The notes: generated by a model from the letters alone, not told the origin. A DNA stretch of 51,559 bases from Candidatus Aminicenantes bacterium (GCA_016934475.1 JAFGST010000010.1:1-51559); one strand, 5' to 3'. Shown: positions 6,301-49,310, numbered from the stretch's first letter. Program-made: numbers and translations.

Positions 6301-6312
6301 GGAAATGGCTGA
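3304..6312 (+). CDS. Receiver-domain-fused PEP/pyruvate-binding (PPDK/PEP synthase N-terminal ATP-grasp) domain protein
   Basis: Two REC-like segments (FLLVASLYD; ILLVEDS...IISDIRFP), then GGKARGL, AVRSSSLLED, FAGIYAT, MEFAV, LQVRP and a C-terminal GPGRWGS...SQGSHFF domain. No pyruvate-binding TIM barrel. Confidence 0.8.
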   Translation: MSDPGGGSQELGGEIFFSCDPSGTAIDRLMPFRVKRFLLVASLYDCFMLEEDGRLQDLLLQTYQKWHLGYVPQFVRVSGGDNALRRIAEEKFDLIIALMRLGDMDPFTFGRKAKEIDPHLPVVGLAYNTPELQRLLELDDGSAVDRVFVWQGDSRVLLGIIQFVEDRRNADNDTEAIGVQSILLVEDSIGFYSSYLPLVFSVLRELTESLLKEDLTFSQKLLRQSARPRLHLATTFEEAVAVFDRFKDHLLGIISDIRFPRQGVLDPEAGRRFLQKVRSEKPQLPILVQSSDDGAEAMAQESGSRFLSKLSPTLLADLKRILRSFFGFGDLLPDPGAGQAGWRFANMDQLYSNLSELPADSLNRMLASGELDRWLRARTEFSLANAIKDLLVKEGLPLASPQEAIKELIAASRTASRRGSIVPYSRHFHEEYSRFSIIGGGSIGGKARGLAFMDRILAKYFDSGKFPGTSVSIPRTLVLGTDVFDDFMKENDLLPQAVEDHSDGHMASLFIKANLPGKVVGDLRDFITHVTVPLAVRSSSLLEDSLYQPFAGIYATKMLPNDQSKNDIRFLNLVNAIKFVYASTFFRQAKAYIASTPHRVEDEKMAVVIQPVVGHLHPDSFYPDFSGVARSYNYYPVGQARPEDGVVNVALGLGKTIVDGGVSLRFTPAYAGVLPQFTSIKEMFRFSQRDFYAVAMRRADSVAFLDEDQYLVKQGLDKAQKDGVLTFLASTYSPENDAVYDGISFEGPRIINFAHILKNKVFPLDAITMHLLRLSSEAMNCAVEMEFAVTIDPQNALPAHFAVLQVRPLVIQDELVEVDLDEGQMEFAFCFSDRVLGNGTNREIRDIVFVKPSSFDAVRSPQIAGEVDALNGRLRAGKAPYLLIGPGRWGSSDPWLGIPVKWSQISGVKVVVEACLPNMNVDPSQGSHFFQNMTSLRIGYFTVALDREHGFIDWPWLEALPAAEETEFLKRVRLPEPVTVVIDGRKSRGIILRPGAPVGGNG

Positions 6313-7211: not shown

Positions 7212-10200
7212 TTATTGGCTTTTAAGGGCCAGGGGGCGGGCGGCGTTGGTCGCGGCGTCGATCTTGACGGCGAAGCTGGTCTTCTTGGCGATATCCTCGT
7301 CGGTCAGCAGGTGATAGTCGAGCAGCCCCCCGGATTTGTAGCCGGTGCGCGAGTAGTTGATCTCGGCCAGGCACAGGCTCCAGCCCTCGAGCCAGAGAAC
7401 AAGTTCCTGCTTCTGCCGCTCGCTCCCTTGGAAGTGGATCAGGAGGTCGATGTCGCTGCCAGGACCGGCCGTGGCGTTCTTCGTCGAGCCGAAGACGTAC
7501 ATGGCCTTGACGCCGAAGCGACCCGGATCAAGCTGGCCGGCGATTCGCTCGGCCATGCGCAGCCGCCAGCCCCAATGGTCGTCGCTGGCCGTCTCGGAGA
7601 CCTCGACCCGTTCCCGCTCGGCACTCGCCTGCGAGTCGGGCGTGGCCAAAAAGCCCAGAGCCTCGCCTAGGTCGGCGTTCATCAGCACCCGCAGCACCCT
7701 GCCGCTGGCGGCGCGCGGAACCTCGATGACGCGGATGGTGTCGGCGAGGGCCGCCGACTCGGGCAGGATGTCGGGGAAGTAGTTTTGGGCATCCAGCAGG
7801 AAACGCTCGTTGAAGATGATACCCGGGTCGTCGGGGTAGAGGGGCAGGTAGCGGATCGATGATTCGACCAGGTCCTGGAAAAAATGGGTGCCGAACGACA
7901 GCTCCGGGACGTAGTTGCCCTTCTTGCGGGCGATCTCGATGAGGGCGGCGGTGTTGTTGAAATCCGAGTAGGTTACGGGCACGCCGAGCTTGATGTCCCC
8001 GCGGCTGCCCCAGCGCCCCGGCCCCATGAGGATGAACCGGCGCTTGGGCAGGAGCTTGTTGAGCTTGCCGACGGCCTGGCCGACCTCGATCATCTGCTCA
8101 CTGCGCTCGAGCAGGGAATAGTTCTCCGGGTCCACGTAGACAATGTGGGTGATGTCGGGAAGCTTGCCGTTCGAGATGTAGCGGTTGGCGGTGAAAATGA
8201 TCCGGTCCTCGGCGATGTCCTTGGGGATGAGGCTGGCCACGTTGCCCGCGGTCGAGCTTTGCGGCCGGCACTGGAGAAGGTAGAGCTGGCGGCCGTCGTG
8301 GGCGAACTCGATGTCCACCGGGGTGCTCATCTTCTCCTGGAGCGTCTTCAGCATGCACTGCAGCTGCTTGACGAAGGGGGTGCGCGAGATCCAGCCCTCG
8401 AAGGTGACGAACAGATTCGCCTTGCTGAAGTCGAGGCCGAGGGCCGAGGGGGAATAGATGTGGTCGTCCTCGTAGACGGAGACGATATTCTCGATGCCGG
8501 GATATTGGGAGCCGCACTCTGTCAGCAGGGCGGTGATCTCCATGGACTCGAACGAGCAGGTCTTCAGGTTGATGACGTCGATGCGCCGCGGCGAGTAGCG
8601 CATTGTCTCGTCGGCGGTGACGTTGACGCGCAGGTTGGGGATGCCCGGCGAGATCAGGATCGGGTAATCGTCGCTGACGCGGTCCACGGCGCGGGTGCCC
8701 AGGCCGGGGACGAGGCGGGCCAGCCCGTCCTCGCGCTTGATGCGCGGCGACCAGCGGAACTCGTTGTTGCTGAAGGCGACGCCGGCGAAGGCGGGGAGAT
8801 AGTAGTCGCCCACTTTTTGCCCGACCACTTCCTGGATCATGATGCCCATCTCCTCATGGAAGTCCAGCAGCCCGCGCTCGGCGCGGTATTCGATGGGGTC
8901 GGGGCCGAAGATGGAGGCGTAGACCTCGGCGATGGCGTCGGTCAGCGCATCCAGCCGCTCCTGTTTCGTTCCCTGGTTGGCCAGGAACAGACTCTTGTAT
9001 TTGCCGGAAAAGGCCATGCCCATGCGGTCTTCCAGTAGGCTCGAGCTGCGCACGATCAGCGGCTTGTTGCCCAGATCGTCGAGGGCCATAGACAGCCCCT
9101 TGATGATCTCGATGGGGAAATGGGCGTTTTTCAGCAGCTGGACGACATTATGGTACTCGAGGCGGATCTGGTCGATTTCCTTGTATTTCTGTTCGTTCAC
9201 TTCCTCGAGGTTGTTGTAGCTCAGGAAGTTCAGGATGGCGTCGGTGGTGATGTACCAGGTCTTGGGGAACTTGAGCTCGCACAGGACCTCGGAGTGGTCG
9301 CCCGGCTTGGTCAGGATTTTCTGCGCCAGGAACAGCCCGGCGCTCTTTCCTCCCAGGCGGCCGTAGCCGTTGGCGGGATAAATGATGCGCTGCACGAGGT
9401 CGTAAAAATGGCGCACCTCGATGTGGTTCTTGGCGATGTTGATGAAATCGAGCTGGTCGGAGAAGAAGCGGCGGATGAGCGAGACGCGAAGCCCCTTCTC
9501 CATGGGGGGCGAGAGCTCATACGTGCCGCCGGAGATGTAGTGGTAATGGGTGATGGCGTTGATGACGTCGACCAGGGGCATGTCGATGTTGTTGATCGCC
9601 CGGCTCAGGAAGCTGGCCTTGTCCTCCTGGATCCACTTCTGGATGCGACCCAGAATATCCGAGTCGCTCAGGTAGCGCGCCGCGATGCGGAACGTCTTGT
9701 CGCTGAGCTCCAGGAGCTCCAGCTGCGATTTCTTCTGGCTGGGGCGGTTCATGTCGTCGCTCATCTCGGTCTGGGCGGCGCCCTGGTCCTTGCTCAAAGA
9801 CTTCAAAAGTTCCTTGGCCTCCATAACGCCGTTCCAGAAGAGGTGGTAGACCATCTTGCGACCCAGGTGGATGTAGAGATTCTGGTCGGTGCGGCGCAGC
9901 AGGTCGATGACGACCATCCATTCCTTCTTGATCTTGTCGCTGAGGTCCTTCTGCGCCGTCTCCCATTCGCGCGAGACCTGCTCCAGCTTGAAATGCAGGA
10001 CGGTGCGGCCGATGCGCTCGGCGATGGTCTGCAGCAGTTTTTGCTCGTCCTTGAGGAAATAGCTGTTTTCCGTCTGTGGGACGTCACGGGTGTAGGAAAC
10101 CTCGATGAAGCCGATGACCTTCTCCTCCTCCTTGATGTCGACGCGCTGCACGCGCGTCGACGGTGTAAATCCCGGGCTCTGGTAGGTGTGGTCCTCGTGG

Positions 10201-10394
10201 ACGATCCGCACCTGGCAGATGTTGGGGAATTGGTAGCCGCCGGGGATGACCTGGAGCAGCTGGGTGAAGATCTCGGACAAAGGCAGGTTGGTCCTGGTGA
10301 GAAGCTCCTCGACCTGGTACAGGCAGTTCAGTTCCTTGGCCCGCTCGCGCATGTCGTGGAGCAGCTTGTCGATCGGGTTTTGCGAATTGTTCAT
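7212..10394 (-). CDS. GAF-like + PEP/pyruvate-binding ATP-grasp + C-terminal nucleotidyltransferase fusion protein
   Basis: N-terminal ERAKELNCLY domain; LGGKSAGL, IVRSSSLLED, FSGKYKS, DIEFA, LQCRP, GPGRWGS and SFGTHFF; C-terminal YVFGS...SDIDL pol-beta-type NTase motif. Confidence 0.82.
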   Translation of the reverse strand: MNNSQNPIDKLLHDMRERAKELNCLYQVEELLTRTNLPLSEIFTQLLQVIPGGYQFPNICQVRIVHEDHTYQSPGFTPSTRVQRVDIKEEEKVIGFIEVSYTRDVPQTENSYFLKDEQKLLQTIAERIGRTVLHFKLEQVSREWETAQKDLSDKIKKEWMVVIDLLRRTDQNLYIHLGRKMVYHLFWNGVMEAKELLKSLSKDQGAAQTEMSDDMNRPSQKKSQLELLELSDKTFRIAARYLSDSDILGRIQKWIQEDKASFLSRAINNIDMPLVDVINAITHYHYISGGTYELSPPMEKGLRVSLIRRFFSDQLDFINIAKNHIEVRHFYDLVQRIIYPANGYGRLGGKSAGLFLAQKILTKPGDHSEVLCELKFPKTWYITTDAILNFLSYNNLEEVNEQKYKEIDQIRLEYHNVVQLLKNAHFPIEIIKGLSMALDDLGNKPLIVRSSSLLEDRMGMAFSGKYKSLFLANQGTKQERLDALTDAIAEVYASIFGPDPIEYRAERGLLDFHEEMGIMIQEVVGQKVGDYYLPAFAGVAFSNNEFRWSPRIKREDGLARLVPGLGTRAVDRVSDDYPILISPGIPNLRVNVTADETMRYSPRRIDVINLKTCSFESMEITALLTECGSQYPGIENIVSVYEDDHIYSPSALGLDFSKANLFVTFEGWISRTPFVKQLQCMLKTLQEKMSTPVDIEFAHDGRQLYLLQCRPQSSTAGNVASLIPKDIAEDRIIFTANRYISNGKLPDITHIVYVDPENYSLLERSEQMIEVGQAVGKLNKLLPKRRFILMGPGRWGSRGDIKLGVPVTYSDFNNTAALIEIARKKGNYVPELSFGTHFFQDLVESSIRYLPLYPDDPGIIFNERFLLDAQNYFPDILPESAALADTIRVIEVPRAASGRVLRVLMNADLGEALGFLATPDSQASAERERVEVSETASDDHWGWRLRMAERIAGQLDPGRFGVKAMYVFGSTKNATAGPGSDIDLLIHFQGSERQKQELVLWLEGWSLCLAEINYSRTGYKSGGLLDYHLLTDEDIAKKTSFAVKIDAATNAARPLALKSQ

Positions 10395-10455: not shown

Positions 10456-11742
10456 TTACACCCAGCCCCTCAGCCTGCAGGCTTCGGCGACGCGGGCGAC
10501 GGCGATCATGTAAGCGGCGTCGCGCATGAAGGCCTTTTTCTGCTTGGCCAGCCCGTACACGGCGTGGAAAGCCGCGGTCATGACGTTGTCGAGCTTGCTC
10601 AGGACCTCTTCCTTGGTCCAGAAGTAGTTCATGTTGCACTGGACCTGCTCGAAATAGCTGCAGGTGACTCCGCCGGCATTGGCCAAAAAGTCGGGGATGA
10701 CGAAGATATTCTTTTTCTTGAACACTTCGTCGGCCTCGGGAGTGGTCGGGCCGTTGGCGCCCTCGGCGACCACCTTCATCTTGGCGGAGATCTTCTGCAC
10801 CGTCTCGGCGTTGATCTGGTTTTCCAGCGCCGCCGGCACCAGGATGTCGACATCCTGTCCGATCCAGGCCTCGGCGTCGGCCACTTCGTAGCCCAGGCCT
10901 TTGGCCTTGGCCTTGTCGATGCCGCCGAACTTGTCGGTGATGCCCAGCAGCTCGTCGAGGTCGATGCCGCTCTTCTTGATGAAGGTGTAGGACTTGTTGT
11001 CTTTCTGGTCCCAGCAGGAGACGCATACGGCCTTGCCGCCGTACTCCTGGTATAGGCGGACGGCATACTGCGAGACGTTGCCGAAGCCCTGGAAAGCGGC
11101 GCTCGTGTTCTTGATCTCGATGCCCAGCTCGCTCAGGGCCTCGCGCAGGGTGTAGATGACGCCGAAGCCCGTGGCCTCGGTGCGCCCCAGCGAGCCCCCC
11201 ATGCCGACCGGCTTGCCGGTGATGAAGCCGGGATACTTGGCACCGGTGAGCTTCTCGTACTCGTCCATCATCCAGATCATGTGCTGGGCGTTGGTCATGA
11301 CGTCGGGGGCCGGGACGTCCTGCAGCGGGCCGACGTTGCGCACCACCTGGCGCACCCAGCCGCGGCAGATCTGCTCCTGTTCGCGCATGGAGAGATTGTG
11401 CGGGTCGCAGATTACGCCGCCCTTGCCGCCGCCCAGCGGGATGTCGACGACGGCGCATTTCCAGGTCATCCAGGTGGCCAGGGCCTTCACCGTGTCGATG
11501 GTCTCCTGGGGGTGGAAGCGGATGCCGCCCTTGCAAGGGCCGCGCGAATCGTTGTGTTGCACCCGGAATCCCTGGAACACCTTCACGGTGCCGTCGTCCA
11601 TCTTGACCGGAATGGAGAAATGGTACTCGCGCAGCGGGTTGCGCAGCAGATCGCGCGTCCCCGGATCCAGGCCCAGTTGCTCGGCGACGCCGTCGAATTG
11701 CTGCTGCGCCATCTTGAACGCGTTGAACGATTTATCAGCCAT
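10456..11742 (-). CDS. gdh: Glutamate dehydrogenase (Glu/Leu/Phe/Val dehydrogenase family)
   Basis: RGPCKGGIRFHP, MTWKCA, GGGKGG, VPAPDV, GRTEATGFG, QGFGNV, EGANGP and PDFLANAGGV motifs. AAGGAGGT RBS before ATG 11742. Confidence 0.93.
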   Translation of the reverse strand: MADKSFNAFKMAQQQFDGVAEQLGLDPGTRDLLRNPLREYHFSIPVKMDDGTVKVFQGFRVQHNDSRGPCKGGIRFHPQETIDTVKALATWMTWKCAVVDIPLGGGKGGVICDPHNLSMREQEQICRGWVRQVVRNVGPLQDVPAPDVMTNAQHMIWMMDEYEKLTGAKYPGFITGKPVGMGGSLGRTEATGFGVIYTLREALSELGIEIKNTSAAFQGFGNVSQYAVRLYQEYGGKAVCVSCWDQKDNKSYTFIKKSGIDLDELLGITDKFGGIDKAKAKGLGYEVADAEAWIGQDVDILVPAALENQINAETVQKISAKMKVVAEGANGPTTPEADEVFKKKNIFVIPDFLANAGGVTCSYFEQVQCNMNYFWTKEEVLSKLDNVMTAAFHAVYGLAKQKKAFMRDAAYMIAVARVAEACRLRGWV

Positions 11743-11777
11743 GGGGTTTACCTCCTTGTGCATTCGTGAGTACGGCC

Positions 11778-11807
11778 ATTTTACCACGCCGTCGGTCCTT
11801 TTGTAAA
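11778..11807 (-). promoter_or_regulatory. sigma70-type promoter of gdh
   Basis: Minus strand: TTACAA/TTTACA -35 and extended -10 TG-G-TAAAAT (11778-11786). Confidence 0.55.
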
Positions 11808-32610: not shown

Positions 32611-32633
32611 AGGAGTCCGTGGAGGAAACGCCC

Positions 32634-33461
32634 ATGAACAAGGTCGTAGCCAAGGAATTCCTTTCGGACAACGTGGCCAGATTGGTCATCGAGGTCCCAC
32701 TCATCGCGAAGAAGCAGAAGCCGGGCCAGTTCGTCATTGTGCGCACCGACGATCGGGGGGAGCGTATTCCTCTGACGATCGCTGACGCCGACAAGGAGAA
32801 CGGGACCATCACCCTCATCGTCCAGAGGGTCGGTACCTCCTCGCACAAGATCTGCGATCTGAACGCCGGGGACGCGCTGCTGGATGTCTCCGGTCCCCTG
32901 GGTCGCCCCACGCATGTCGAGAAAGTGGGAACCGTGCTGGCCTGTGGCGGCGGCGTGGGCATTGCCCCTCTCTATCCAATCGCCAGGGCGTTCAAGGAGG
33001 CCGGCAACAGGCTCGTCACGGTGCTGGGTGCCCGCAGCCGAGATCTGCTGATCCTGGAAAAGGAGATGGCCGTGTTCGCCGATGAGCTGGTCGTCATGAC
33101 CGATGACGGCTCCTATGGCAAGAAGGGGCTGATTACGGCCGGCATCGAGGAAGTGCTGGTGCGCGAGCCCGTCCACCTGGTGGTGACCATCGGGCCGGCG
33201 GTGATGATGAAATTCGTCGCCCTGCTCACCAAGAAGCACAACGTCCCGACCATCGCCAGCCTGAACACAATCATGGTGGACGGGACCGGGATGTGCGGCG
33301 CCTGCCGGGTCACGGTCGGAGGAAGGACCCGCTTCGTCTGCGTCGACGGTCCCGAGTTTGATGCCCACGAGATAGACTACGACGAGATGATCAAGAGGCT
33401 GAACACCTATCAAAGGGAAGAACGCCTTTCCTATGACGCATTCCGGAAAACATCGCCCTGA
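32634..33461 (+). CDS. nfnA: NADH-dependent ferredoxin:NADP+ oxidoreductase small subunit (NfnA/SudB)
   Basis: PGQFVI, GERIPLTI, GPLG, GGGVG, TDDGSYG and SLNTIMVDGTGMCGACRV..CVDGPEF motifs. Confidence 0.9.
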   Translation: MNKVVAKEFLSDNVARLVIEVPLIAKKQKPGQFVIVRTDDRGERIPLTIADADKENGTITLIVQRVGTSSHKICDLNAGDALLDVSGPLGRPTHVEKVGTVLACGGGVGIAPLYPIARAFKEAGNRLVTVLGARSRDLLILEKEMAVFADELVVMTDDGSYGKKGLITAGIEEVLVREPVHLVVTIGPAVMMKFVALLTKKHNVPTIASLNTIMVDGTGMCGACRVTVGGRTRFVCVDGPEFDAHEIDYDEMIKRLNTYQREERLSYDAFRKTSP

Positions 33462-33473
33462 AGGAGATCCATC

Positions 33474-34961
33474 ATGCCGGTTGATCTGCAGGAATTGAGC
33501 GCCGACAGGAACCAGGAGTGGAGAAACGAGCTGCGAAGCAAGTTGAGCGCCAAGGAGCGGAGCGCCTTGCCCCGCGTCCGCATGCCCGAGCTGGATCCCG
33601 GGCAGAGAAAAAAGGGCTTCGAGGAGGTCAACACCGGATTGAGCGCCGAGATGGCCGTCCAGGAGGCACGACGATGCCTGGACTGCGCCTCGCCCACGTG
33701 CATTTCCGGTTGCCCGGTGAACATCAATATCCCGGGATTCATCAAACTGATCGAAAAGGGGGATTTCCCGGCGGCGGCCAGGAAATTGAAGGAGACCAAC
33801 GCCCTGCCGGCCGTTTGCGGCCGGGTTTGTCCCCAGGAGATCCAGTGCGAGGCCAATTGCGTCTACCAGAGGATGAAAAAGCCGCCGGTGGCCATCGGCT
33901 ACCTGGAGAGGTTCGCCTCGGACTGCGAACGCCTTTCGGGAAACATCGCCATCCCGGCGATCGCCAGAGCGATCCCGCTGCAGGTCGCCGCCATCGGCTC
34001 CGGGCCGGCCAGCTTGACCTTCGCCGGCCTGATGGCCAAGCTGGGCTACCGCGTGACCGTCTTCGAGGCCCTGCATGAGCTGGCCGGGGTGCTGAGCTAC
34101 GGCATCCCGGAATTCCGCCTGCCCAAGAGCATCGTACGCTCGGAGATCGCCTATCTGGAGGCTATCGGCGTGGTCTTCGAAAGGAACGTGGTCGTCGGCA
34201 AGACCTTGACATTCGATGACATGAAAGGACAGGGATTCCGGGGATTCTTTATCGGCAGCGGCGCCGGTCTGCCGAAGTTCATGCACATCCCCGGCGAGAA
34301 TTCCATCGGCATCTACTCCTCCAACGAATACCTCACCCGCGTCAACCTGATGAAGGCCTACCAATTCCCCCGCTTCGACACGCCGATCGTCAGCGGCAGG
34401 CAGGTGGCGGTCATCGGCGGGGGCAACACGGCCATGGATTCGGTGCGCACGGCCGTCCGCCTGGGCGCCGAGAGGGCGATGATCGTTTATCGCCGCTCCG
34501 AGCAGGAAATGCCGGCCCGCATCGAGGAGGTGCACCATGCCAAGGAGGAAGGGGTCGAGTTCCTGACCCTGACCAATCCCGTCGCCTACCTCGCCGACGA
34601 GAACGGGCGGGTGAAGCAGATGCGGGTGCAGAAGATGGAGCTGGGAGCCCCCGACGATTCGGGGAGACGGCGGCCTGTGGTCATCGCCGGGTCCGAGTAC
34701 GCAATCGACGTGGACACGGTGGTCGTCGGCGTCGGCACCGATCCCAATCCCCTCATCCCGCAAACGGTCGGCGGTCTCGAGGTCACCAAGTGGGGGACCA
34801 TCGTGGTCAACGAAGAGACCATGCAGACCGCCGTGCCGGAGATATTCGCCGGCGGTGACATCGTCCGCGGCGGCGCGACCGTCATCCTGGCCATGGGCGA
34901 CGGGAAAAAGGCGGCCGAGTCCATGCACGCCTACCTGCAGCGTGGAACGAGCGCGACATGA
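33474..34961 (+). CDS. nfnB: NADH-dependent ferredoxin:NADP+ oxidoreductase large subunit (NfnB/SudA, GltD-like)
   Basis: EARRCLDC..C..GCPV, CGRVCPQE.QCE, GSGPA, YGIPEFRLPK, GGGNTAMD, YRRS and GGATVILAMGDG motifs; directly follows nfnA. Confidence 0.9.
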   Translation: MPVDLQELSADRNQEWRNELRSKLSAKERSALPRVRMPELDPGQRKKGFEEVNTGLSAEMAVQEARRCLDCASPTCISGCPVNINIPGFIKLIEKGDFPAAARKLKETNALPAVCGRVCPQEIQCEANCVYQRMKKPPVAIGYLERFASDCERLSGNIAIPAIARAIPLQVAAIGSGPASLTFAGLMAKLGYRVTVFEALHELAGVLSYGIPEFRLPKSIVRSEIAYLEAIGVVFERNVVVGKTLTFDDMKGQGFRGFFIGSGAGLPKFMHIPGENSIGIYSSNEYLTRVNLMKAYQFPRFDTPIVSGRQVAVIGGGNTAMDSVRTAVRLGAERAMIVYRRSEQEMPARIEEVHHAKEEGVEFLTLTNPVAYLADENGRVKQMRVQKMELGAPDDSGRRRPVVIAGSEYAIDVDTVVVGVGTDPNPLIPQTVGGLEVTKWGTIVVNEETMQTAVPEIFAGGDIVRGGATVILAMGDGKKAAESMHAYLQRGTSAT

Positions 34962-41520: not shown

Positions 41521-41699
41521 TCCCTCCTCCTTTTTGAGAGATCGAAAATTCCTATCAGACAATTATATTGGATTTGTGATTTTATCTCATCTTTTTTTTA
41601 AATATTTTTTTCTCTCGTGGAGTGAACTAAGGTTCAATTGACGGGTTTTCAATACTGTGATATATGAATGGCGGATTATTGTCTAGAAAGGAGGCATAT

Positions 41700-42845
41700 A
41701 TGAGTCTTTCGGGGGAAAAAGCGCCGCAAAAGAGGTATCGCATCGCCTGGCTGCCCGGCGACGGCATCGGGATCGAGGTGCTGGCCGCGGCCAGGGTCGT
41801 CCTTGACAAACTGCATTTCACCGCCGAGTACGTCCACGGCGACATCGGCTGGGAGTTCTGGTGCAAGGAGGGCGACGCCTTCCCGCAGCGCACCATCGAC
41901 CTGCTCAAGAGCGTCGACGCGGCCATGTTCGGCGCCATCACCTCCAAGCCGGTCAAGGCGGCCGAGGCCGAGCTTGTGCCCGAGTTGAAGGGCCGGGGCC
42001 TCGTCTACCGCTCGCCGATCGTGCGCATGCGCCAGCTCTTCGACCTGTACAATTGCCTGCGCCCCTGCAAGGCCTATCCCGGCAATCCGCTGAACTTCAA
42101 GGAGAACATCGACCTGGTGGTCTTCCGCGAGAATACCGAGGACCTTTACTCCGGGGTGGAGTTCAACCAGGTGCCGCCCGAGCTGGCCGAGGTCCTGGCC
42201 AGGCTTTCCAAGCCCTTCGCGGCGTTCAAGGATCTTCCCGGCGACCAGTACGCCATCTCGACCAAGATCAATACCCGCAAGGGATCGGAGCGCATCATCC
42301 GCGAGGCCTTCGAGTTCGCCAAGAAGTTCGGCCGCAAGAAGGTCACCGTGGTGCACAAGGCCAACGTGGTGCGCGCCACCGACGGCCTGTTCCTGGAGAC
42401 CGCCAGGGAGGTGGCCCAGGGCTATCCCGAGATCCAGATGGACAACGCCAACATCGACGCCATGTGCATGTGGCTGCTGAAGAACCCCTTCAACTACGAT
42501 GTCCTGGTGGCCCCCAACCTCTACGGCGACATCATCTCCGACCTCTGCGCCCAGATGGTCGGCGGCCTGGGCTTCGGCTGCTCGGGCAACATCGGCGAGA
42601 AGCTGGCCGTCTTCGAGCCGACCCACGGCTCGGCGCCGAAATACTCCGGCCAGCAAAAGGTCAATCCCATCGCCACCATCCTGGCCGCCAAGATGATGCT
42701 CGACTGGCTCGGCGAGACCGAGATGGGCGCGCGGCTGGAGACCGCAACCGCCGCGGTGATCAAGGAAGGCAAGGTGCGCACCTACGACATGGGGGGGGCC
42801 AACAAGACGCTGGAGATGGCCGAGGCGATCGCCGCGAAGCTGTAA
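41700..42845 (+). CDS. Isocitrate/isopropylmalate/homoisocitrate dehydrogenase family protein
   Basis: LPGDGIGIEV, FGAITS, SPIVRMRQLFDLY..LRP, FRENTED.Y, HKANV, NLYGDIISD and EPTHGSAPKY motifs; AGGAGG RBS. Confidence 0.9.
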   Translation: MSLSGEKAPQKRYRIAWLPGDGIGIEVLAAARVVLDKLHFTAEYVHGDIGWEFWCKEGDAFPQRTIDLLKSVDAAMFGAITSKPVKAAEAELVPELKGRGLVYRSPIVRMRQLFDLYNCLRPCKAYPGNPLNFKENIDLVVFRENTEDLYSGVEFNQVPPELAEVLARLSKPFAAFKDLPGDQYAISTKINTRKGSERIIREAFEFAKKFGRKKVTVVHKANVVRATDGLFLETAREVAQGYPEIQMDNANIDAMCMWLLKNPFNYDVLVAPNLYGDIISDLCAQMVGGLGFGCSGNIGEKLAVFEPTHGSAPKYSGQQKVNPIATILAAKMMLDWLGETEMGARLETATAAVIKEGKVRTYDMGGANKTLEMAEAIAAKL

Positions 42846-42898
42846 ATCCCCGGCATCTTGCATGAACGCCGGGCAAGGGCGCAAAGGGAGGTCATTCA

Positions 42899-43819
42899 AT
42901 GAATGAGATCCGTATTCATGAAGTCGGCCTACGGGACGGGCTGCAGATCGAGAAGCAATCCGTGCCCCTGGAAAAGAAGGTCGAATGGGTGGAAGCCCTG
43001 CTGGCCGCCGGCGTCGGCATGATCCAGCTGGGTTCGTTCGTCAACCCGGAGAGGGTGCCGCAGATGGCCGACAGCGACAAGCTCTTCGCCCATTTCGGCC
43101 AGGCGGGACGAAAGCCGGTTACGGCCGTCCTGTCGGGGCTGGTGCTGAATGAAAAAGGGCTTGAGCGCGGCATGGCCTGCGGGGTCGACATGTTCTGCAT
43201 GGGGGTGTCGGCCAGCGAAACCCACAGCCGCAAGAACACGGGCAAGGGCACCGATGAGGCCATCGGTCAGATCGTCGCCATGGCCCAGGCGGCCCTGAAA
43301 TCCGGCAAGCGCGTCCAGGCCTCCATTCAGTCGGCGTTCGGCTGCGGCTTCGAGGGGCCCATGGCTCCCGAGAGGGTCTTGGCCATCGTCGACAGGTACC
43401 TGGAGGCGGGCATAGGCAATATCAGCCTGGCCGACACGGCGGGTCATGCCCACCCCCCCCAGGTGGAAGGCCTGTACGGGGAAATCCGCAAGCGCGACGG
43501 CAAGGCCGAGCTGGCCTGCCACTTCCACAACACCTACGGCCTGGGGCTGGCGAACTGCTATGCGGCCATGAGAGCCGGGGTGACGTATTTCGAGGCGGCG
43601 CTGGGCGGACTGGGCGGCTGCCCCTTCACCAAGGTGGCGGCGGGCAACGTCTGCAGCGAGGACCTGGTCCATTCCCTGCAGCGCCAGGGGCTGGCCATGG
43701 AGATCGACCTGGACAGGCTCACCGAGACCGCCCGCGATCTCGGCCGCTTCTTCGGCCGCGAGCTCCCCGGATTCATCCTCAAGGCAGGCTCCATCGTCCG
43801 TTTCAGGAAAACGCCATAA
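42899..43819 (+). CDS. HMG-CoA lyase family (DRE-TIM) acyl-CoA lyase
   Basis: HEVGLRDGLQ, GSFVNP.RVPQMAD, AFGCGFEG, SLADTAG, HFHNTYG and GGLGGCPF..AAGNV motifs. Confidence 0.9.
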   Translation: MNEIRIHEVGLRDGLQIEKQSVPLEKKVEWVEALLAAGVGMIQLGSFVNPERVPQMADSDKLFAHFGQAGRKPVTAVLSGLVLNEKGLERGMACGVDMFCMGVSASETHSRKNTGKGTDEAIGQIVAMAQAALKSGKRVQASIQSAFGCGFEGPMAPERVLAIVDRYLEAGIGNISLADTAGHAHPPQVEGLYGEIRKRDGKAELACHFHNTYGLGLANCYAAMRAGVTYFEAALGGLGGCPFTKVAAGNVCSEDLVHSLQRQGLAMEIDLDRLTETARDLGRFFGRELPGFILKAGSIVRFRKTP

Positions 43820-43831
43820 AGGAGTAACACC

Positions 43832-45025
43832 ATGAAATTACTGGAAAAGGTCAGGATCGTTGACCTGACCAATGTCCTTTCGGGACCGTTCTGCACCATG
43901 CACCTGGCCCTGCTGGGAGCCGAGGTGATCAAGGTGGAGAATCCCGAGGGGGGCGACCTCGCCCGCAAGCTGGGCAATGTCCCCGGCCTGAACAAGCAGC
44001 TGATGGGCACCAGCTTCCTGGCGCAGAACGCCAACAAGAAATCGCTCACCCTGAACCTGAAGCTCGACGAGGGCAAGGAGATCTTCCGCAAGCTGGTCGA
44101 GAGCGCCGACGTGCTGGTGGAGAATTTCCGCCCCGGCGTCATGGACCGCCTCGGCTTTTCCTATTCGAAGTTGTCGGAGATCAATCCGCGCTTGGTCTAC
44201 TGCGCCATCTCCGGCTTCGGCCAGACGGGGCCCGATGCCTTCAAGCCGGCCTACGACCAGATCATCCAGGGCCTGAGCGGGGTCATGGCCATCAACGGCG
44301 ATGAGCGCCTGAACCCGCTGCGCTGCGGATTCCCGGTCTGCGACACGGTCGGCGGCTTGAACGCGGCCTTCGCCATCATGGCCGCGCTTTATTACCGGGA
44401 GAAGAGCGGTCGCGGCCAGTTCATCGACATCGCTATGCTCGACTCGATCATGCCGCTGATGGGCTGGGTGGCGGCCAACCTGCTCATCGGCGGCCAGCAG
44501 CCGCTGCTTCTGGGCAACGACAACTTCACCGCCGCCCCATCGGGGGCCTTCGCCACCCAGGATGGCTACGTCAACATCGCCGCCAACCAGCAGAAGCAGT
44601 GGGAAGACCTGGCCGACGCCCTAGGCGTTCCGGAGCTGAAGAACGATCCCCGCTTCCAGGAGCGCGACACGCGGAAAGGCAACCGCAAGCTGCTGACTCC
44701 CCTGCTGGAGGCCAGGCTGAAGGAGAACACGACCGCCTACTGGGTCGACCTGCTCAACGACCGGGGCATCCCCTCCGGCGACATCGTCGGCCTGGAGGCG
44801 GCACTGACCTCGGAGCAGGCCCGGCACCGGCAGGTCATCGAGGAGGTCAAGGAGGAGGGGATCGGAACCATCAAGATCTTCAACCTGACCGCCAAGTTCT
44901 CGGAAACCCCGGCCGGGATCGATGCCCCGCCGCCGCGCCTGTCGGCCCATACCGCGGAGATCCTCGAGGGGCTGGGCTACAGGAAAGAGGACGTCAAGGC
45001 GTTCAAGGAAAAAGGCGCGATCTGA
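43832..45025 (+). CDS. Family III CoA-transferase (CaiB/BaiF)
   Basis: DLTNVLSGPFC..LALLGAEVIKVE, NANKKS, ENFRPGV, SGFGQTGP, AYD and catalytic-Asp region FPVCD. Confidence 0.92.
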   Translation: MKLLEKVRIVDLTNVLSGPFCTMHLALLGAEVIKVENPEGGDLARKLGNVPGLNKQLMGTSFLAQNANKKSLTLNLKLDEGKEIFRKLVESADVLVENFRPGVMDRLGFSYSKLSEINPRLVYCAISGFGQTGPDAFKPAYDQIIQGLSGVMAINGDERLNPLRCGFPVCDTVGGLNAAFAIMAALYYREKSGRGQFIDIAMLDSIMPLMGWVAANLLIGGQQPLLLGNDNFTAAPSGAFATQDGYVNIAANQQKQWEDLADALGVPELKNDPRFQERDTRKGNRKLLTPLLEARLKENTTAYWVDLLNDRGIPSGDIVGLEAALTSEQARHRQVIEEVKEEGIGTIKIFNLTAKFSETPAGIDAPPPRLSAHTAEILEGLGYRKEDVKAFKEKGAI

Positions 45026-45054
45026 GCGCCGCCACAACACAAGGAGGAACCACC

Positions 45055-46347
45055 ATGGGAATGACGATGGTTGAGAAGATCCTGGTCAGGGCGACCGGCC
45101 AGGCCGAGGTCAAGGCCGGCGATGTCTTGGAGCCGAAGGTCGATCTGGCCATGTCGCACGAAAACGGCGCCCTGGTCATCAACCAGTTCAACGACATCTA
45201 CAAGGGCACCGGGCTCGAGGCCAGGGTGTGGGATCCGAGCCGGATCGCCATCATCTTTGACCACCGGGTCCCGGCCGAAAGCTCGAAAACGGCGACCAAC
45301 CAGAAGAAGATCCGTGACTTCGTGGCCAAGCAGGGGATCAGCAAGTTTCACGACATCCGCGGCGACGGCGGCGGCATTTGCCACCAGATCCTCCCCGAGT
45401 ACGGCTATGTGCGGCCGGGCCACGTCGTGGTCGGGACCGATAGCCACACCACCAGCCACGGCGCCCTGGGCGCCTTCTCCTTCGGCATCGGCGCCACGGA
45501 AATGGCCGCCGTCTGGGCATTGGGGAAGATGCTGAACGTCGAGGTGCCTAAGACCATCAAGGTGATCTGCGAAGGCAAGTTCAAGCGCCATGTGGCGCCC
45601 AAGGACCTGATCCTGCATCTGGTGGGCAAGCTGACGGCCGAGGGGGCCAATTTCAAGGTCATCGAATTCCATGGCCCGGTCATCGAGAGCATGCCGACCT
45701 CGGGCCGTCTCGTGATCTGCAACATGACGGTCGAGGCCGGCGCCACCTCGGGCATCGTGCCGCCCGACGCCGAGACGGTGCGCTATTTGAAGGAGGAAGC
45801 CGGAGTCGAAGAGGTTCCCGAGCTGTTCGGCCCCGATCCCGATGCGGTTTATGAACAGGAGATCACTATCAACGTCTCCAAGCTGCAGCCGCAGATCGCT
45901 TGCCCGCACACGGTGGACAACGTCAAGCCCATCAAGCAGGTGCTGGGTGTCAAGATCAACCAGGTCGTCATCGGCTCCTGCACCAACGGCCGCCTCGACG
46001 ACCTGGCCATCGCCGCCAAGATCCTGAAAGGGAAGAAAGTAGCCAAGGGAACACGCATGCTGATCTTCCCCGCCTCGACGCGCATCTACCGGCAGGCCCT
46101 CAAGAAGGGATATCTCGCCACCTTCATGGAGGCCGGCGCCGTGGTGATGAACTCCGGCTGCGGCCCCTGCCTGGGCATCCACCAGGGGGCCCTGGCCGAT
46201 GGCGACGTCGCCCTGGCCACGACCAACCGCAACTTCAAGGGGCGCATGGGCAATCCCAACGCCGAGGTCTACCTGTGCTCGCCGGCCGTGGCCGCCGCTT
46301 CGGCCGTCACCGGCGTCATAACCGACCCGAGAAAAAAAGGAGAATAG
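45055..46347 (+). CDS. 3-isopropylmalate dehydratase/homoaconitase large subunit (LeuC/HacA type)
   Basis: MTMVEKIL, FDH..P, GICHQ, GTDSHT..HGA, GSCTNGR, GCGPCLG and NRNFKGRMG motifs; AAGGAGG RBS. Substrate unresolved. Confidence 0.9.
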   Translation: MGMTMVEKILVRATGQAEVKAGDVLEPKVDLAMSHENGALVINQFNDIYKGTGLEARVWDPSRIAIIFDHRVPAESSKTATNQKKIRDFVAKQGISKFHDIRGDGGGICHQILPEYGYVRPGHVVVGTDSHTTSHGALGAFSFGIGATEMAAVWALGKMLNVEVPKTIKVICEGKFKRHVAPKDLILHLVGKLTAEGANFKVIEFHGPVIESMPTSGRLVICNMTVEAGATSGIVPPDAETVRYLKEEAGVEEVPELFGPDPDAVYEQEITINVSKLQPQIACPHTVDNVKPIKQVLGVKINQVVIGSCTNGRLDDLAIAAKILKGKKVAKGTRMLIFPASTRIYRQALKKGYLATFMEAGAVVMNSGCGPCLGIHQGALADGDVALATTNRNFKGRMGNPNAEVYLCSPAVAAASAVTGVITDPRKKGE

Positions 46348-46351
46348 CAAA

Positions 46352-46852
46352 ATGGCCAAAGTCGTTTACAAAGTCGGAGACGATGTCTCCACCGACATCA
46401 TCTACCCGGGACGGTTCATGGCCACGGTGTTGCCGAGCGAAACGCCGCAGTATGCCTTTGCCGATTCCCCCGAATTCAACGCCAGGATCAAGAGCGGGGA
46501 ATTTCCGCCGCAGAGCATCATCGTGGCCGGAAAGAACTTCGGCTGCGGCTCATCGCGCGAACAGGCCGCCTCCTGCCTGAAGGGTCCCGATTTCGTGGTC
46601 GTTGCCCGCAATTTTTCGCGCATCTTCATGCAAAACGCCATCAATCTCGGCCTGAAAATGGTCATCTGCCCGACGATCGAGACCAATGAGGGGGACGAGC
46701 TGGAAATTACCGCCGACCAGGTGGTCAACAAGAACTCGGGCAAGATTTTTCCCGTGATCCCCATGCCCAAGGCGCGGCAGGCGATCATCGACGCCGGCGG
46801 CCTGATCCCTTTCGCCCGCCAGCTGGTTGTCGAGGCCCAGGGCAAGGGCTGA
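46352..46852 (+). CDS. 3-isopropylmalate dehydratase/homoaconitase small subunit (LeuD/HacB type)
   Basis: GDDVSTDIIYP, AGKNFGCGSSREQA, FSRIFMQNAINLG and IIDAGGL motifs. Confidence 0.9.
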   Translation: MAKVVYKVGDDVSTDIIYPGRFMATVLPSETPQYAFADSPEFNARIKSGEFPPQSIIVAGKNFGCGSSREQAASCLKGPDFVVVARNFSRIFMQNAINLGLKMVICPTIETNEGDELEITADQVVNKNSGKIFPVIPMPKARQAIIDAGGLIPFARQLVVEAQGKG

Positions 46853-46857
46853 GCCCG

Positions 46858-47676
46858 TTGGGCCTGAACTTCAGGGAGGCGCTGTCCGCCCTCTCCCGGG
46901 CGCTGCCTTTGGTCCTTTTCCGGGCCGGGATTTTCGTGGTCGGCGGCTTCGCTGCCGTCATTTTTTTCGGCATGCTGCTCCTCGTCCTCCGCCCAAACGG
47001 CGGCGCTGGCCCGCTTGTCGCCCTGCTCCTCGCCTTGCCAATCCTCCTCGGCGGCTGGGCCAGTGGCCGGCTGCTGCAACGATTCTTTCTATTCCGCCAC
47101 CGGGCGGCCATGCTATACCTTTTCTCGGAGCAGAGACCCGCGGCCCCGGGGCTAGCCGGCGCCCTGCAAGAAACGGAGCGCTCCATCCCCGACCATGGCG
47201 CCTGGTTGGCCTTGAACCATGCCATAGGCAGAGCCTTTGCGGGCTTTCCCGGCGATGGTTCGGCGGCGATTACCGTCCATCCGGTCACCGCTGAGGTCCT
47301 CGGCCAGGCCGTCCTGGCCCTGGCATTCTCCCGGGGCGGAACGGACTTCAAGCATTCTATCCGGGAGGGGCTGGCTCTTTTTTTCTGCAACGGGGATGAA
47401 ACAAGGTGCCTGGCGCGGCGCTGGCTGGGATTCTCGGTCGCCGGCCTCACGCTCCTTTTCCTCTGCCTCGCCTTGCCCAATTGGTTTTTATTCAGCAGCG
47501 TTGGTGCGCCGGTCTGGATCGGCATGGCCCTGGCCGCAACCATCGCCTGGCTCCTGCAGCAGGCCTTTGTTTTCCCATTTGTTCTGGCTGGCGTCAGTGG
47601 TGCGCTCCTGGCCGCCACCCGCGGGCATACTCCCGACCCGGACCTGGTCGAAAAGCTGGCCACAGTCCTGCCGTAG
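46858..47676 (+). CDS. Hypothetical membrane protein
   Basis: 272-codon ORF starting 5 bp after the leuD-like stop, with about 4 hydrophobic segments. Confidence 0.6.
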   Translation: MGLNFREALSALSRALPLVLFRAGIFVVGGFAAVIFFGMLLLVLRPNGGAGPLVALLLALPILLGGWASGRLLQRFFLFRHRAAMLYLFSEQRPAAPGLAGALQETERSIPDHGAWLALNHAIGRAFAGFPGDGSAAITVHPVTAEVLGQAVLALAFSRGGTDFKHSIREGLALFFCNGDETRCLARRWLGFSVAGLTLLFLCLALPNWFLFSSVGAPVWIGMALAATIAWLLQQAFVFPFVLAGVSGALLAATRGHTPDPDLVEKLATVLP

Positions 47677-47782: not shown

Positions 47783-47894
47783 AACCACAAGCTGACGGAC
47801 CTTTACTCCAACCCCTGACCAAATAAAATGGTCCAACTTGAATTGGGGAATAAATCTTGTTAGACTTTGCCGAATTGGAGAATTCACCCTGATC

Positions 47895-49310
47895 ATGGAG
47901 AGAACAGACAAAACCAAATCCGCCATTAAAAATGACTGGAAAGTACTTCTCTTGCTGCTTGTTCTGGCATTGGGAATTTTTACCCCCTTTGTGGGGAAAG
48001 GTTTTGTCACAGATGATTTCGTCCATATCCGGCACGTTCAAAAAGGCGGCAATCCTTTAACTATCTCCCCCTTTGGGATCTACCGGCCGGTTGTCAGTCT
48101 GAGTTTTTACATCAACCACAAACTGTTCCAATTGAATGCCTTTCCTTATCGAATCACCAACCTGCTGTTGCATCTGTTGGTGATTGTGCTGTTGTTCATC
48201 TTTACCAAGACATTTACCGGGGACCGTTCGCTAACATTCCTAGCGGTTCTGGCATTCATCCTTACTCCAAAAGCACACACCATGGCAGTCAACTGGATAT
48301 CCGGCAGAACCGAATTATTAATGGGAATATTCAGTTTACTGGCCATCATCAGCTGGCTCCAGTATGAGTCCCAGCACAAAAAAAGATACTTTCTTTTGTG
48401 CATGACAGGCTATTTCCTGGCGGTGCTGAGCAAGGAGAATGCCGCTTTATTACCGGCACTTCTTTTTTTCATCTCATCCTCCTGGAAAATAAGTAAAAAG
48501 CGAATCATCGAAATTTCACTGATGTTTTCTGTTTTGGGGGCGGTGCTCCTGTTAAGATATTCTTTGGGAGCATTGATGCCGGTCTCCGGCGACGTTCATT
48601 ACAATCTGCTGATTCCAATAGGAACCATCCTGGAAAATATCATTAACTACTTTTTCCGAAGCATTCCGTCGGTGTTTTTATTGATCCTGGCGGTCTCCAT
48701 CCCCATGCTGATTGCCGGTAACCGAAAGAAGGTGAAAGGGATTCAAGCCCATGGTTCCCCCCTCTCCATCAGATCGGTATTGTTCTCCTGCATATGGTTC
48801 CTGATGTTTATCATTCCGGTCTCCCCCATCAGGATGAGAAGTGAATTATACGTCTATTTTGCCGGTTTTGGATTTTGTATTCTGGGGTCCCAAATCTTGA
48901 TCAAAAACCTGAAGGCCGATTTTTTTACCAAAAAGAGAATCAATGCTCCCCTGATTGGGGGATTGGTTGTGTATATCCTGCTAGCAGGGGCCTATATCAT
49001 CAATGGAAATATTCAATTCCTTCGCAAATCACATTTCTCAAATCAATTTTTACAAGAAATGATCCGTCAAGTGGAAATTACCCCAGATAACAATTTTCTC
49101 TATATAAAACCGGAAGACCGGAACACCGAAAAATGGGTACAATATGTATTCCAGGGGTATTTTGACATTATCGTGAAGGTGATTTACAATCGGGAGAACC
49201 TGTCCGGCCGGATGGCGTATGAGGAAGATTTTTCAGATCACAAAAACAAAACCACTTATAAGGTAAAGTATCTCGGCGGGAAACTGAAATTTATCCAAGA
49301 ACTCCCCTAA
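47895..49310 (+). CDS. Low-GC multi-pass GT-C-fold glycosyltransferase-like protein (TMTC/ArnT/PMT-like)
   Basis: FVTDDF, YRPVVSLSF..NH.LF, YRITNLLLH, H..AVNWISGRTELL and LSKENA motifs; many TM helices; visibly AT-richer than flanks. Confidence 0.75.
   Translation: MERTDKTKSAIKNDWKVLLLLLVLALGIFTPFVGKGFVTDDFVHIRHVQKGGNPLTISPFGIYRPVVSLSFYINHKLFQLNAFPYRITNLLLHLLVIVLLFIFTKTFTGDRSLTFLAVLAFILTPKAHTMAVNWISGRTELLMGIFSLLAIISWLQYESQHKKRYFLLCMTGYFLAVLSKENAALLPALLFFISSSWKISKKRIIEISLMFSVLGAVLLLRYSLGALMPVSGDVHYNLLIPIGTILENIINYFFRSIPSVFLLILAVSIPMLIAGNRKKVKGIQAHGSPLSIRSVLFSCIWFLMFIIPVSPIRMRSELYVYFAGFGFCILGSQILIKNLKADFFTKKRINAPLIGGLVVYILLAGAYIINGNIQFLRKSHFSNQFLQEMIRQVEITPDNNFLYIKPEDRNTEKWVQYVFQGYFDIIVKVIYNRENLSGRMAYEEDFSDHKNKTTYKVKYLGGKLKFIQELP

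Follow-up and report, generated by a model that had tools for sequence, protein, structure and literature searches.

The operon described here lies in a 51,559-nucleotide stretch of DNA from a Candidatus Aminicenantes bacterium (GCA_016934475.1 JAFGST010000010.1:1-51559), which at its full length is called the window; the genome to which the window belongs (G000) is 79.8% complete, and the labels of almost identical proteins also put the organism in Aminicenantes/Acidobacteriota. Between positions 41664 and 46852 of the plus strand, five closely packed open reading frames (ORFs) with coding-type G+C content at third codon positions follow one another on the same strand, separated in order by gaps of 53, 12, 29 and 4 nucleotides. 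The first (41664-42845, +) encodes a dehydrogenase of the Iso_dh family with 393 residues (PF00180, E 1e-88), here proposed to be an isocitrate dehydrogenase. The second (42899-43819, +) encodes an acyl-coenzyme A (CoA) lyase of 306 residues belonging to the 3-hydroxy-3-methylglutaryl (HMG)-CoA lyase family (PF00682, E 7e-40), a candidate citryl-CoA lyase or citryl-CoA-forming aldolase, and the third (43832-45025, +) a family III CoA-transferase of 397 residues (PF02515, E 4.5e-121), a candidate acyl-CoA:citrate CoA-transferase. The last two genes encode the subunits of an aconitase-family hydro-lyase: a large subunit of the archaeal LeuC/HacA type (45055-46347, +; PRK00402, 566 bits), the putative large subunit of an aconitase, and a LeuD-type small subunit of 166 residues (46352-46852, +; TIGR02087, 121 bits against a cut-off of 109).

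An earlier note on the window, made from its sequence alone, had described a tight operon of exactly these five genes, and the Pfam and NCBIfam assignments agree with that description. The note had placed the beginning of the operon at 41700; the dehydrogenase gene is real, but its ORF opens at 41664, and the alternative start at 41700 is the internal Met13 of that ORF. The LeuC gene starts at 45055, not at 45040. The flanks of the operon hold unrelated genes, namely those for a PEGA-domain protein, a MiaB-like radical SAM protein, a peptidase C10, a membrane protein, a PMT_2 protein and an alpha-2-macroglobulin, and scans of the operon for promoters and terminators gave consensus-level matches only.

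Family assignment of the lyase and the CoA-transferase

The lyase exceeds the cut-offs of both HMG-CoA lyase family models (PF00682, 137.5 bits, cut-off 29; NF004283, 272.4 bits, cut-off 246). It can be aligned over its full length with the solved HMG-CoA lyases 6nds, 1ydo, 2ftp and 2cw6, and retains the RDGLQ, HxH and GGCP segments, whose residues we take to have catalytic roles. Models for LeuA, CimA and homocitrate synthases all score far under their cut-offs on this protein (best 83.7 bits against 517), and its 306 residues contain no extra domain, that is, none of the C-terminal subdomains of a full-length synthase. The statement of the earlier note that the operon contains no synthase is thus confirmed. 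Moreover, a PF00682 search of G000 returned the operon lyase, one weak partial match on contig C81 (34 bits) and nothing else, so that the lack of a synthase holds for the assembled part of this genome.

The CoA-transferase matches PF02515 over residues 4-374 (404.9 bits), in other words as a full-length member of the family, and all models of characterised specificity (succinate-glutarate, oxalate, formyl, mesaconate, carnitine) remain below their cut-offs, with, for example, 285 bits against 750. Its closest solved relative is the human succinate-hydroxymethylglutarate CoA-transferase 9br6, and that of the lyase is an HMG-CoA lyase. Citryl-CoA is HMG-CoA in which the methyl group is replaced by a carboxylate. 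The CoA donor would probably be succinyl-CoA, which a SucCD pair of ordinary type on contig C265 of G000 (33% and 48% identity) could supply or cycle.

Conservation and distribution of the operon

Conservation of the cluster, a check proposed in the earlier note, was followed in a phylum sample of 201 Acidobacteriota genomes, where a carrier is a genome with a lyase ortholog of at least 55% identity and the unpublished genomes G024, G152 and G049 are counted as ordinary non-carriers. Lyase orthologs are found in 37 of the 201 genomes and are separated by a clear gap from ordinary HMG-CoA lyases, which reach at most 43% identity. The lyase and transferase genes are adjacent in all 36 carriers other than G000. 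The five genes stand together in 24 of these, and in one more the operon is cut by a contig end; three carriers have four genes, the dehydrogenase being missing, and eight have the pair alone. In the two pair-only genomes checked, of the eight (G017 and G051), the remaining orthologs are located elsewhere in the genome, where their neighbours are housekeeping or unrelated genes. Gene order is changed in five of the 36 carriers (G056, G083, G100, G159 and G033).

A cross-phylum set, consisting of the best 80 loci from a species-representative collection, gives the same picture: the lyase and transferase genes adjoin each other at every one of the 80 loci, and 50 loci have the complete set of five genes, many of the others being cut by contig ends. 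The titles of these records name Aminicenantes, Acidobacteria, Anaerolineales/Chloroflexota, Zixibacteria, Ignavibacteria, Omnitrophota, Armatimonadetes and others. The arrangement is therefore conserved far beyond chance. Among 114 loci compared, no further conserved neighbours (transporters including those for citrate, regulators, ferredoxin oxidoreductases) were found beside the operon beyond lineage-specific genes. As a side observation, operons of the Aminicenantes type (80-86% identity) also occur in records titled Patescibacteria, Clostridia and Chrysiogenales (L094, L096, L097, L140 and others), and these labels of metagenome-assembled genomes (MAGs) look unreliable.

Dehydrogenase and LeuCD subunits

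The dehydrogenase is the sole Iso_dh gene of G000, and the LeuC of the operon is the sole aconitase-family gene. None of the NCBIfam equivalog models reaches its cut-off on the dehydrogenase, whose best solved relatives are the NAD-isocitrate dehydrogenases 6m3s and 6ltf, followed in third place by the homoisocitrate dehydrogenase of Thermus. Specifically, the isocitrate dehydrogenase model PRK08997 gives 300 bits against 510, and the substrate loop, Ser-Pro-Ile, keeps the Ser and has the Asn replaced; this lowers the case for a canonical isocitrate dehydrogenase, not the case for an enzyme that acts on isocitrate. The AksF2 model gives 342 bits against 540, and a Val is aligned with Arg85 of the Thermus homoisocitrate dehydrogenase (3asj), a residue that presumably contacts the distal carboxylate. 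The 3-isopropylmalate dehydrogenase models remain equally below threshold (PRK03437, 276 bits against 393; leuB, 200 against 353).

LeuC exceeds the cut-offs of the broader models, with 566 bits against 385 for PRK00402, 530 for TIGR02086 and 522 for TIGR01343, and falls short of those at equivalog level (LEU2, 466 against 611; HacA_Meth, 488 against 550; aconitate hydratase PRK07229, 357 against 612). Among the ortholog sequences listed, the substrate loop of the dehydrogenase, YRSPIVRMRQ, is constant, and so is the LeuD loop, YPGR[F/Y]MATVLP, apart from one FPGR variant. Loops that are nearly invariant in both enzymes argue for a single conserved specificity.

Paralogy with operons of a citryl-CoA synthetase-like pair

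The relatives of the dehydrogenase fall into three tiers. The orthologs proper, at 73-87% identity, come from 35 genomes, and the lyase is present in 33 of these. A second tier, with 57-63% identity, is found in 22 genomes, none of which has the HMG-CoA-lyase (HMGL)-type lyase, and a third lies at roughly 46-57%. The dehydrogenases of the second tier share an unusual insertion of about 15 residues, and their loop reads YFSPIVRLRQ against YRSPIVRMRQ in the clade of the window.

A citryl-CoA lyase adjoins or lies near the second-tier dehydrogenase in 6 of the 12 loci of this tier that were fetched, being directly adjacent in G047 and G117, and 19 of the 22 genomes hold such a lyase. Operons of G177, G012, G023 and G046 have the order SucC-like protein, SucD-like protein, citryl-CoA lyase, HD protein, LeuC', LeuD' and dehydrogenase, after which comes a second LeuCD pair. 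The citryl-CoA lyase of these operons is recognised by NF004869 (272 bits, cut-off 212), and the SucC-like protein has a marginal Citrate_bind match. This nine-gene operon of class-level relatives, at 1264-9907 in L180 (G177:C2) and also in L174, L181 and L192, is an observation in its own right: its SucC-like protein has 519 residues with an extra C-terminal part, its HD protein 177 residues, and its LeuCD-type pairs number two. The HMGL-type lyase and the citryl-CoA lyase occur together in just one of the 37 carriers, and the citryl-CoA lyase is present in 26 of the 164 non-carriers.

In a maximum-likelihood tree, the clade of the window dehydrogenase groups with these paralogs, and LeuB of G017, G085 and G036 is set apart from it by a branch of 3.8 changes per site. 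Canonical isocitrate dehydrogenases were placed within the window clade on a branch 4.1 long with weak support (86/36); this placement was treated as a long-branch artefact and used for no inference. Given the shared dehydrogenase clade and the gene order of the paralogous operons, the window operon looks like the same segment in which the ATP-dependent synthetase and the lyase of citrate-synthase fold have been swapped for a CoA-transferase and a lyase of HMGL fold.

Hydrogenobacter thermophilus is said to employ a citryl-CoA synthetase (CcsAB) together with a citryl-CoA lyase (Ccl), here abbreviated CCS/CCL; the operons above, with their citryl-CoA synthetase-like SucC/SucD pair, are referred to as being of this type. 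The window operon resembles this system, and the operons of G177, G012, G023 and G046, in the two-step logic that leads from citrate to citryl-CoA and on to acetyl-CoA and oxaloacetate, and in the partnership with a LeuCD-type hydro-lyase (47-52% identity) and an inserted-loop dehydrogenase (57-63%). It differs in three respects: activation would be performed by an ATP-independent family III CoA-transferase and not by a SucCD-like ligase; the lyase has the DRE-TIM fold of HMG-CoA lyases and not that of citrate synthase; and the operon has no HD protein and a single LeuCD pair. Furthermore, G000 has ordinary SucCD only and no match to PF00285, the citrate synthase family. The operon would hence work like CCS/CCL without being a member of it.

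Phyletic patterns around the citrate step

A match to PF00285 is missing from 16 of the 201 genomes of the phylum sample, G000 included, and these comprise 12 of the 37 carriers and 4 of the 164 non-carriers. Within families f1 and f22 the difference is sharper, the match being absent from 10 of 11 carriers and from none of the 5 non-carriers. Eight of 30 further carriers reached via the loci, genomes of which the completeness is not established, also have no PF00285 match. In nine synthase-less carriers (G000, G058, G187, G121, G051, G204, G206, G210 and G224) the operon holds the sole Iso_dh and aconitase-family genes. Relatives of family f1 that have no operon carry a citrate synthase gene adjoining that of an isocitrate dehydrogenase of the canonical type, whose loop has the Ser-x-Asn motif. 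Genus g55 offers a comparison at close range: in G051 the pair is present and citrate synthase absent, whereas G090 has citrate synthase and no pair, its only Iso_dh gene being an ortholog (81%) of the window dehydrogenase, with the LeuCD ortholog kept. Since these counts involve related genomes that are not phylogenetically independent, and G000 and the MAGs are incomplete, they are suggestive of a role around citrate, not statistical proof.

A short gene of about 390 codons, similar to those for LeuA and homocitrate synthase and below all cut-offs, was found in 16 of the 201 genomes, where its neighbours give no clue to a pathway. The earlier note would have counted a canonical synthase elsewhere in the genome against its proposal. 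The short gene answers to this in part, since it is present in G058 and G187, of the same genus as the window, and also in G121 and G017; it was not found in G000, G097, G051, G029 or G071. In the same-genus genomes it comes after an ORF for a LysW-like zinc ribbon of 57 residues (31-33 bits, cut-off 53), as in locus L037 (G187:C9; 4460-5845 and 5665-5838, minus strand) and at G058:C1:870-2176. The short gene could encode a homocitrate synthase or a Re-citrate synthase, and the zinc-ribbon ORF its small partner.

A separate observation concerns five genomes with Zixibacteria or Ignavibacteria labels (G201, G202, G209, G213 and G216), in which short, citryl-CoA-lyase-like citrate synthase homologs of about 270 residues occur in addition to a full-length citrate synthase; there are up to three citrate-related systems in each of these genomes.

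A proposed citrate node

We propose, at roughly even odds, that the operon acts on citrate, isocitrate and 2-oxoglutarate and forms a self-contained citrate node. Gene families, conservation, phyletic patterns and paralogy are what is observed, and from them we infer the substrates, the CoA donor and the direction. Specifically, the lyase would reversibly interconvert acetyl-CoA and oxaloacetate with citryl-CoA. The CoA-transferase would then pass CoA from citryl-CoA to a free acid or back, the acid being probably succinate and possibly acetate, and would so give citrate with no hydrolysis of the thioester. The LeuCD-type enzyme would serve as aconitase, and the dehydrogenase would interconvert isocitrate with 2-oxoglutarate and CO2. 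Taken as a whole, the operon would be a functional analogue of the operons of related bacteria that combine CCS/CCL with aconitase and isocitrate dehydrogenase. Where citrate synthase is missing, the operon would be a source of 2-oxoglutarate, or a sink for it; where a canonical tricarboxylic acid (TCA) set is present as well, it may be used to cleave citrate or as a bypass that saves the thioester.

The free-energy drop of the citrate synthase reaction comes from hydrolysis of the thioester. Because the lyase and the CoA-transferase would retain it, the conversion of acetyl-CoA and oxaloacetate to 2-oxoglutarate and CO2 should lie near equilibrium, and whether the pathway runs towards synthesis or cleavage is fixed by nothing found here. 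The routes that combine LeuA, CimA or homocitrate synthase with LeuCD and LeuB follow the same logic of isomerisation and oxidative decarboxylation with enzymes of the same superfamilies. Unlike them, the window operon has no hydrolysing Claisen synthase, and its C-C step is split between lyase and CoA-transferase, which would make it near-equilibrium and reversible. Likewise, citrate lyase (CitDEF) and ATP-citrate lyase achieve a net conversion of citrate to oxaloacetate and acetate or acetyl-CoA through a citryl thioester, but the window operon has neither an acyl-carrier subunit nor CitE/CitF homologs, would use no ATP, and draws on other enzyme families.

The earlier note had read the locus as a 2-oxoacid chain-elongation pathway without a synthase. 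Its reversible, thioester-conserving C-C step remains the most economical reading, as the pair sits at the place of the LeuA-type synthase in elongation operons. Among the substrates that it had considered, 2-oxoglutarate is favoured by the CCS/CCL paralogy and by the missing citrate synthase, and branched-chain or adipate substrates are less favoured. The amino-acid fermentation route that it had suggested for the backward direction finds no support here; the gene of the glutamate dehydrogenase that it had invoked as a source of 2-oxoglutarate (10456-11787, -) lies 30 kb away and is unlinked to the operon.

With a confidence somewhat short of even, we further suggest that the operon may represent a third, ATP-independent route, after ATP-citrate lyase and CCS/CCL, by which citrate is made or split via free citryl-CoA in many anaerobic phyla (Acidobacteriota including Aminicenantes, Anaerolineales, Zixibacteria, Ignavibacteria and others). 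In the literature consulted, supplements aside (including PMC4897734, PMC6469976, PMC6593406, PMC9802188 and PMC3832036), no description was found of the operon, nor of a route through citryl-CoA that depends on a CoA-transferase and has an HMGL-type lyase. What is new here is the link between the operon type of the window and the CCS/CCL operon type, together with the phyletic tests.

Several observations weigh against a role in citrate metabolism. A PF00285 homolog is present in 47 of the 67 carriers examined (25 of 37 and 22 of 30), and in G172 the genes for citrate synthase, isocitrate dehydrogenase and aconitase are neighbours; where a complete separate TCA set exists, the proposed role would be redundant. 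Five of the 30 carriers reached via the loci also have short citryl-CoA-lyase-like genes. The short LeuA-like gene occurs in 8 of the 16 genomes without PF00285, and in 7 of the 12 carriers among them, and it may be a Re-citrate synthase that replaces citrate synthase. As for the enzymes themselves, the Ser-x-Asn motif of 6m3s and of the canonical isocitrate dehydrogenase of G085 is without its Asn in the loop of the window dehydrogenase; basic residues are absent from the LeuD loop, which differs from that of the CCS/CCL-linked LeuD' (GKYTY); and LeuC is just 47-52% identical to LeuC'. Finally, the only characterised pairing of an HMGL-family lyase (about 34 kDa) with a family III CoA-transferase known to us is that of Chloroflexus, which acts on (R)-citramalate.

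Alternative explanations

This last point leads to the strongest competitor of the citrate node, which we nevertheless regard as unlikely: a citramalate pathway. Here the pair would be a succinyl-CoA:(R)-citramalate CoA-transferase and an (R)-citramalyl-CoA lyase, LeuCD would act on citramalate, citraconate and 3-methylmalate, and the dehydrogenase would interconvert 3-methylmalate and 2-oxobutyrate. Two enzymes of these activities were reportedly described in Chloroflexus aurantiacus by Friedmann et al. in 2006 and 2007. At the level of gene families, the Chloroflexus system likewise pairs the gene of a family III CoA-transferase with that of an HMGL-family lyase, and it acts on a 2-hydroxy-2-substituted dicarboxylate; it differs in that citramalate is the substrate and that it is not known to have linked genes for LeuCD or a dehydrogenase.

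The hydrophobic Ile-Val in the dehydrogenase loop and the Met-Ala in the LeuD loop would suit such a substrate, but Ile-Val is found in the CCS/CCL-linked dehydrogenases as well and is thus not diagnostic of alkyl substrates. In G095, a genome 99% complete in which the lyase ortholog was not found, between the dehydrogenase and LeuC orthologs lies a PrpB-like gene of the isocitrate lyase/phosphoenolpyruvate (PEP)-mutase family (L179, G095:C260; 1787-2746, -; TIGR02317, 217 bits, cut-off 354). A lyase of this kind in place of the pair would fit the direct cleavage of a free 2-alkylmalate, and so counts against citrate as the substrate. On the other hand, IlvD, required for the synthesis of valine, leucine and isoleucine, was found in 1 of the 18 carriers tested, compared with 3 of 3 non-carriers of the same families, and its absence from the other 17 removes the biosynthetic purpose of a citramalate route. 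In carriers without IlvD such a route would have to run catabolically, from 2-oxobutyrate, CO2 and NAD(P)H to pyruvate and acetyl-CoA. It would also leave unexplained why carriers are frequently without citrate synthase, aconitase and isocitrate dehydrogenase, and why in G090, which has a citrate synthase, the dehydrogenase is retained as the sole Iso_dh.

A homocitrate pathway is more doubtful still. It would connect 2-oxoglutarate and acetyl-CoA with 2-oxoadipate via homocitryl-CoA, homocitrate and homoisocitrate, either as a synthase-less front half of the aminoadipate route or, in reverse, for the breakdown of lysine or 2-oxoadipate. The top sub-threshold equivalogs, methanogen AksF2 (342 bits) and the homoaconitase HacA (488 bits), point in this direction, but the CCS/CCL-linked paralogs give the identical ranking, which is accordingly a property of the clade and carries no information on the substrate. 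Similarly, the third rank of the Thermus homoisocitrate dehydrogenase among the solved relatives, and a Ser equivalent to its Ser72, which we assume to be functionally important, are set against the Val at the position of Arg85. Besides, LysW of the aminoadipate route was above cut-off in none of 22 genomes, and the 114 loci show no conserved neighbour of the operon with a role in lysine catabolism.

The least probable of the three divides the roles of the enzymes. The dehydrogenase and LeuCD would be the isocitrate dehydrogenase and aconitase of the cell, supplied with citrate either by a normal citrate synthase or by a Re-citrate synthase that the short LeuA-like gene would encode, and the pair would serve cleavage only. 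Citrate and succinyl-CoA would then give succinate, acetyl-CoA and oxaloacetate, and each citrate oxidised as far as succinyl-CoA would meet the cost of cleaving and reducing another, in a dismutation of citrate or glutamate. This would agree with the short LeuA-like gene in half of the PF00285-less genomes (8 of 16, seven of them carriers) and with the presence of the operon alongside a full TCA set in many carriers. It fits less well with the five genomes named above, from G000 to G071, in which the short synthase was not found, or with the lack of a conserved citrate transporter near the 114 loci. This division of roles is a sub-case of the citrate node and does not contradict it.

Biosynthetic roles were rejected: since 17 of the 18 carriers tested have no IlvD and none of 22 genomes has a LysW that exceeds its cut-off, a function in making leucine, isoleucine or, through the aminoadipate route, lysine is unlikely, and G017 has a separate canonical leuA-leuB-leuC set. 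Catabolism of HMG was likewise set aside, since an isomerase of the aconitase type cannot act on HMG, and such a role would give no reason for the linkage to the LeuCD and dehydrogenase genes.

Other features of the window

Five nucleotides downstream of LeuD begins a membrane ORF of 272 residues without Pfam match (46858-47676, +). A homolog follows LeuD in 17 of the 114 loci compared, and the ORF may be a lineage-specific sixth gene of the operon. Further downstream, the gene of a PMT_2-type glycosyltransferase (47838-49310, +) lies in a stretch of low G+C content (0.47 against about 0.62) and may have been acquired horizontally. Elsewhere in the window, two very large PPDK_N proteins (PEP-utilising, ATP-binding) are encoded at 3304-6312 (+) and 7212-10394 (-), one with a receiver domain and the other with a nucleotidyltransferase domain. 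An NfnAB/GltD-like pair occupies 32619-34961 (+) and consists of an FAD/NAD-binding subunit of the ferredoxin-reductase type and a Fer4_20/Pyr_redox_2 subunit.

Significance

If the proposed citrate node is real, genomes that are scored as being without citrate synthase, ATP-citrate lyase and CCS/CCL would still own a working, reversible citrate node. Metabolic reconstructions of abundant anaerobes of sediments and wetlands would have to be revised, and the flow of carbon through the TCA cycle, or its reverse, as deduced from metagenomes would be open to reinterpretation. The many anaerobic phyla concerned would be able to enter and leave the TCA cycle by a fully reversible route that conserves the thioester and is at present invisible to marker-gene surveys of the oxidative, reductive and reversed-oxidative forms of the cycle. 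Such a near-equilibrium alternative to citrate synthase would save energy and could be used in pathway engineering. Should one of the alternatives prove true instead, the operon would still represent an undescribed reversible route for the shortening or lengthening of 2-oxoacids in hundreds of species.

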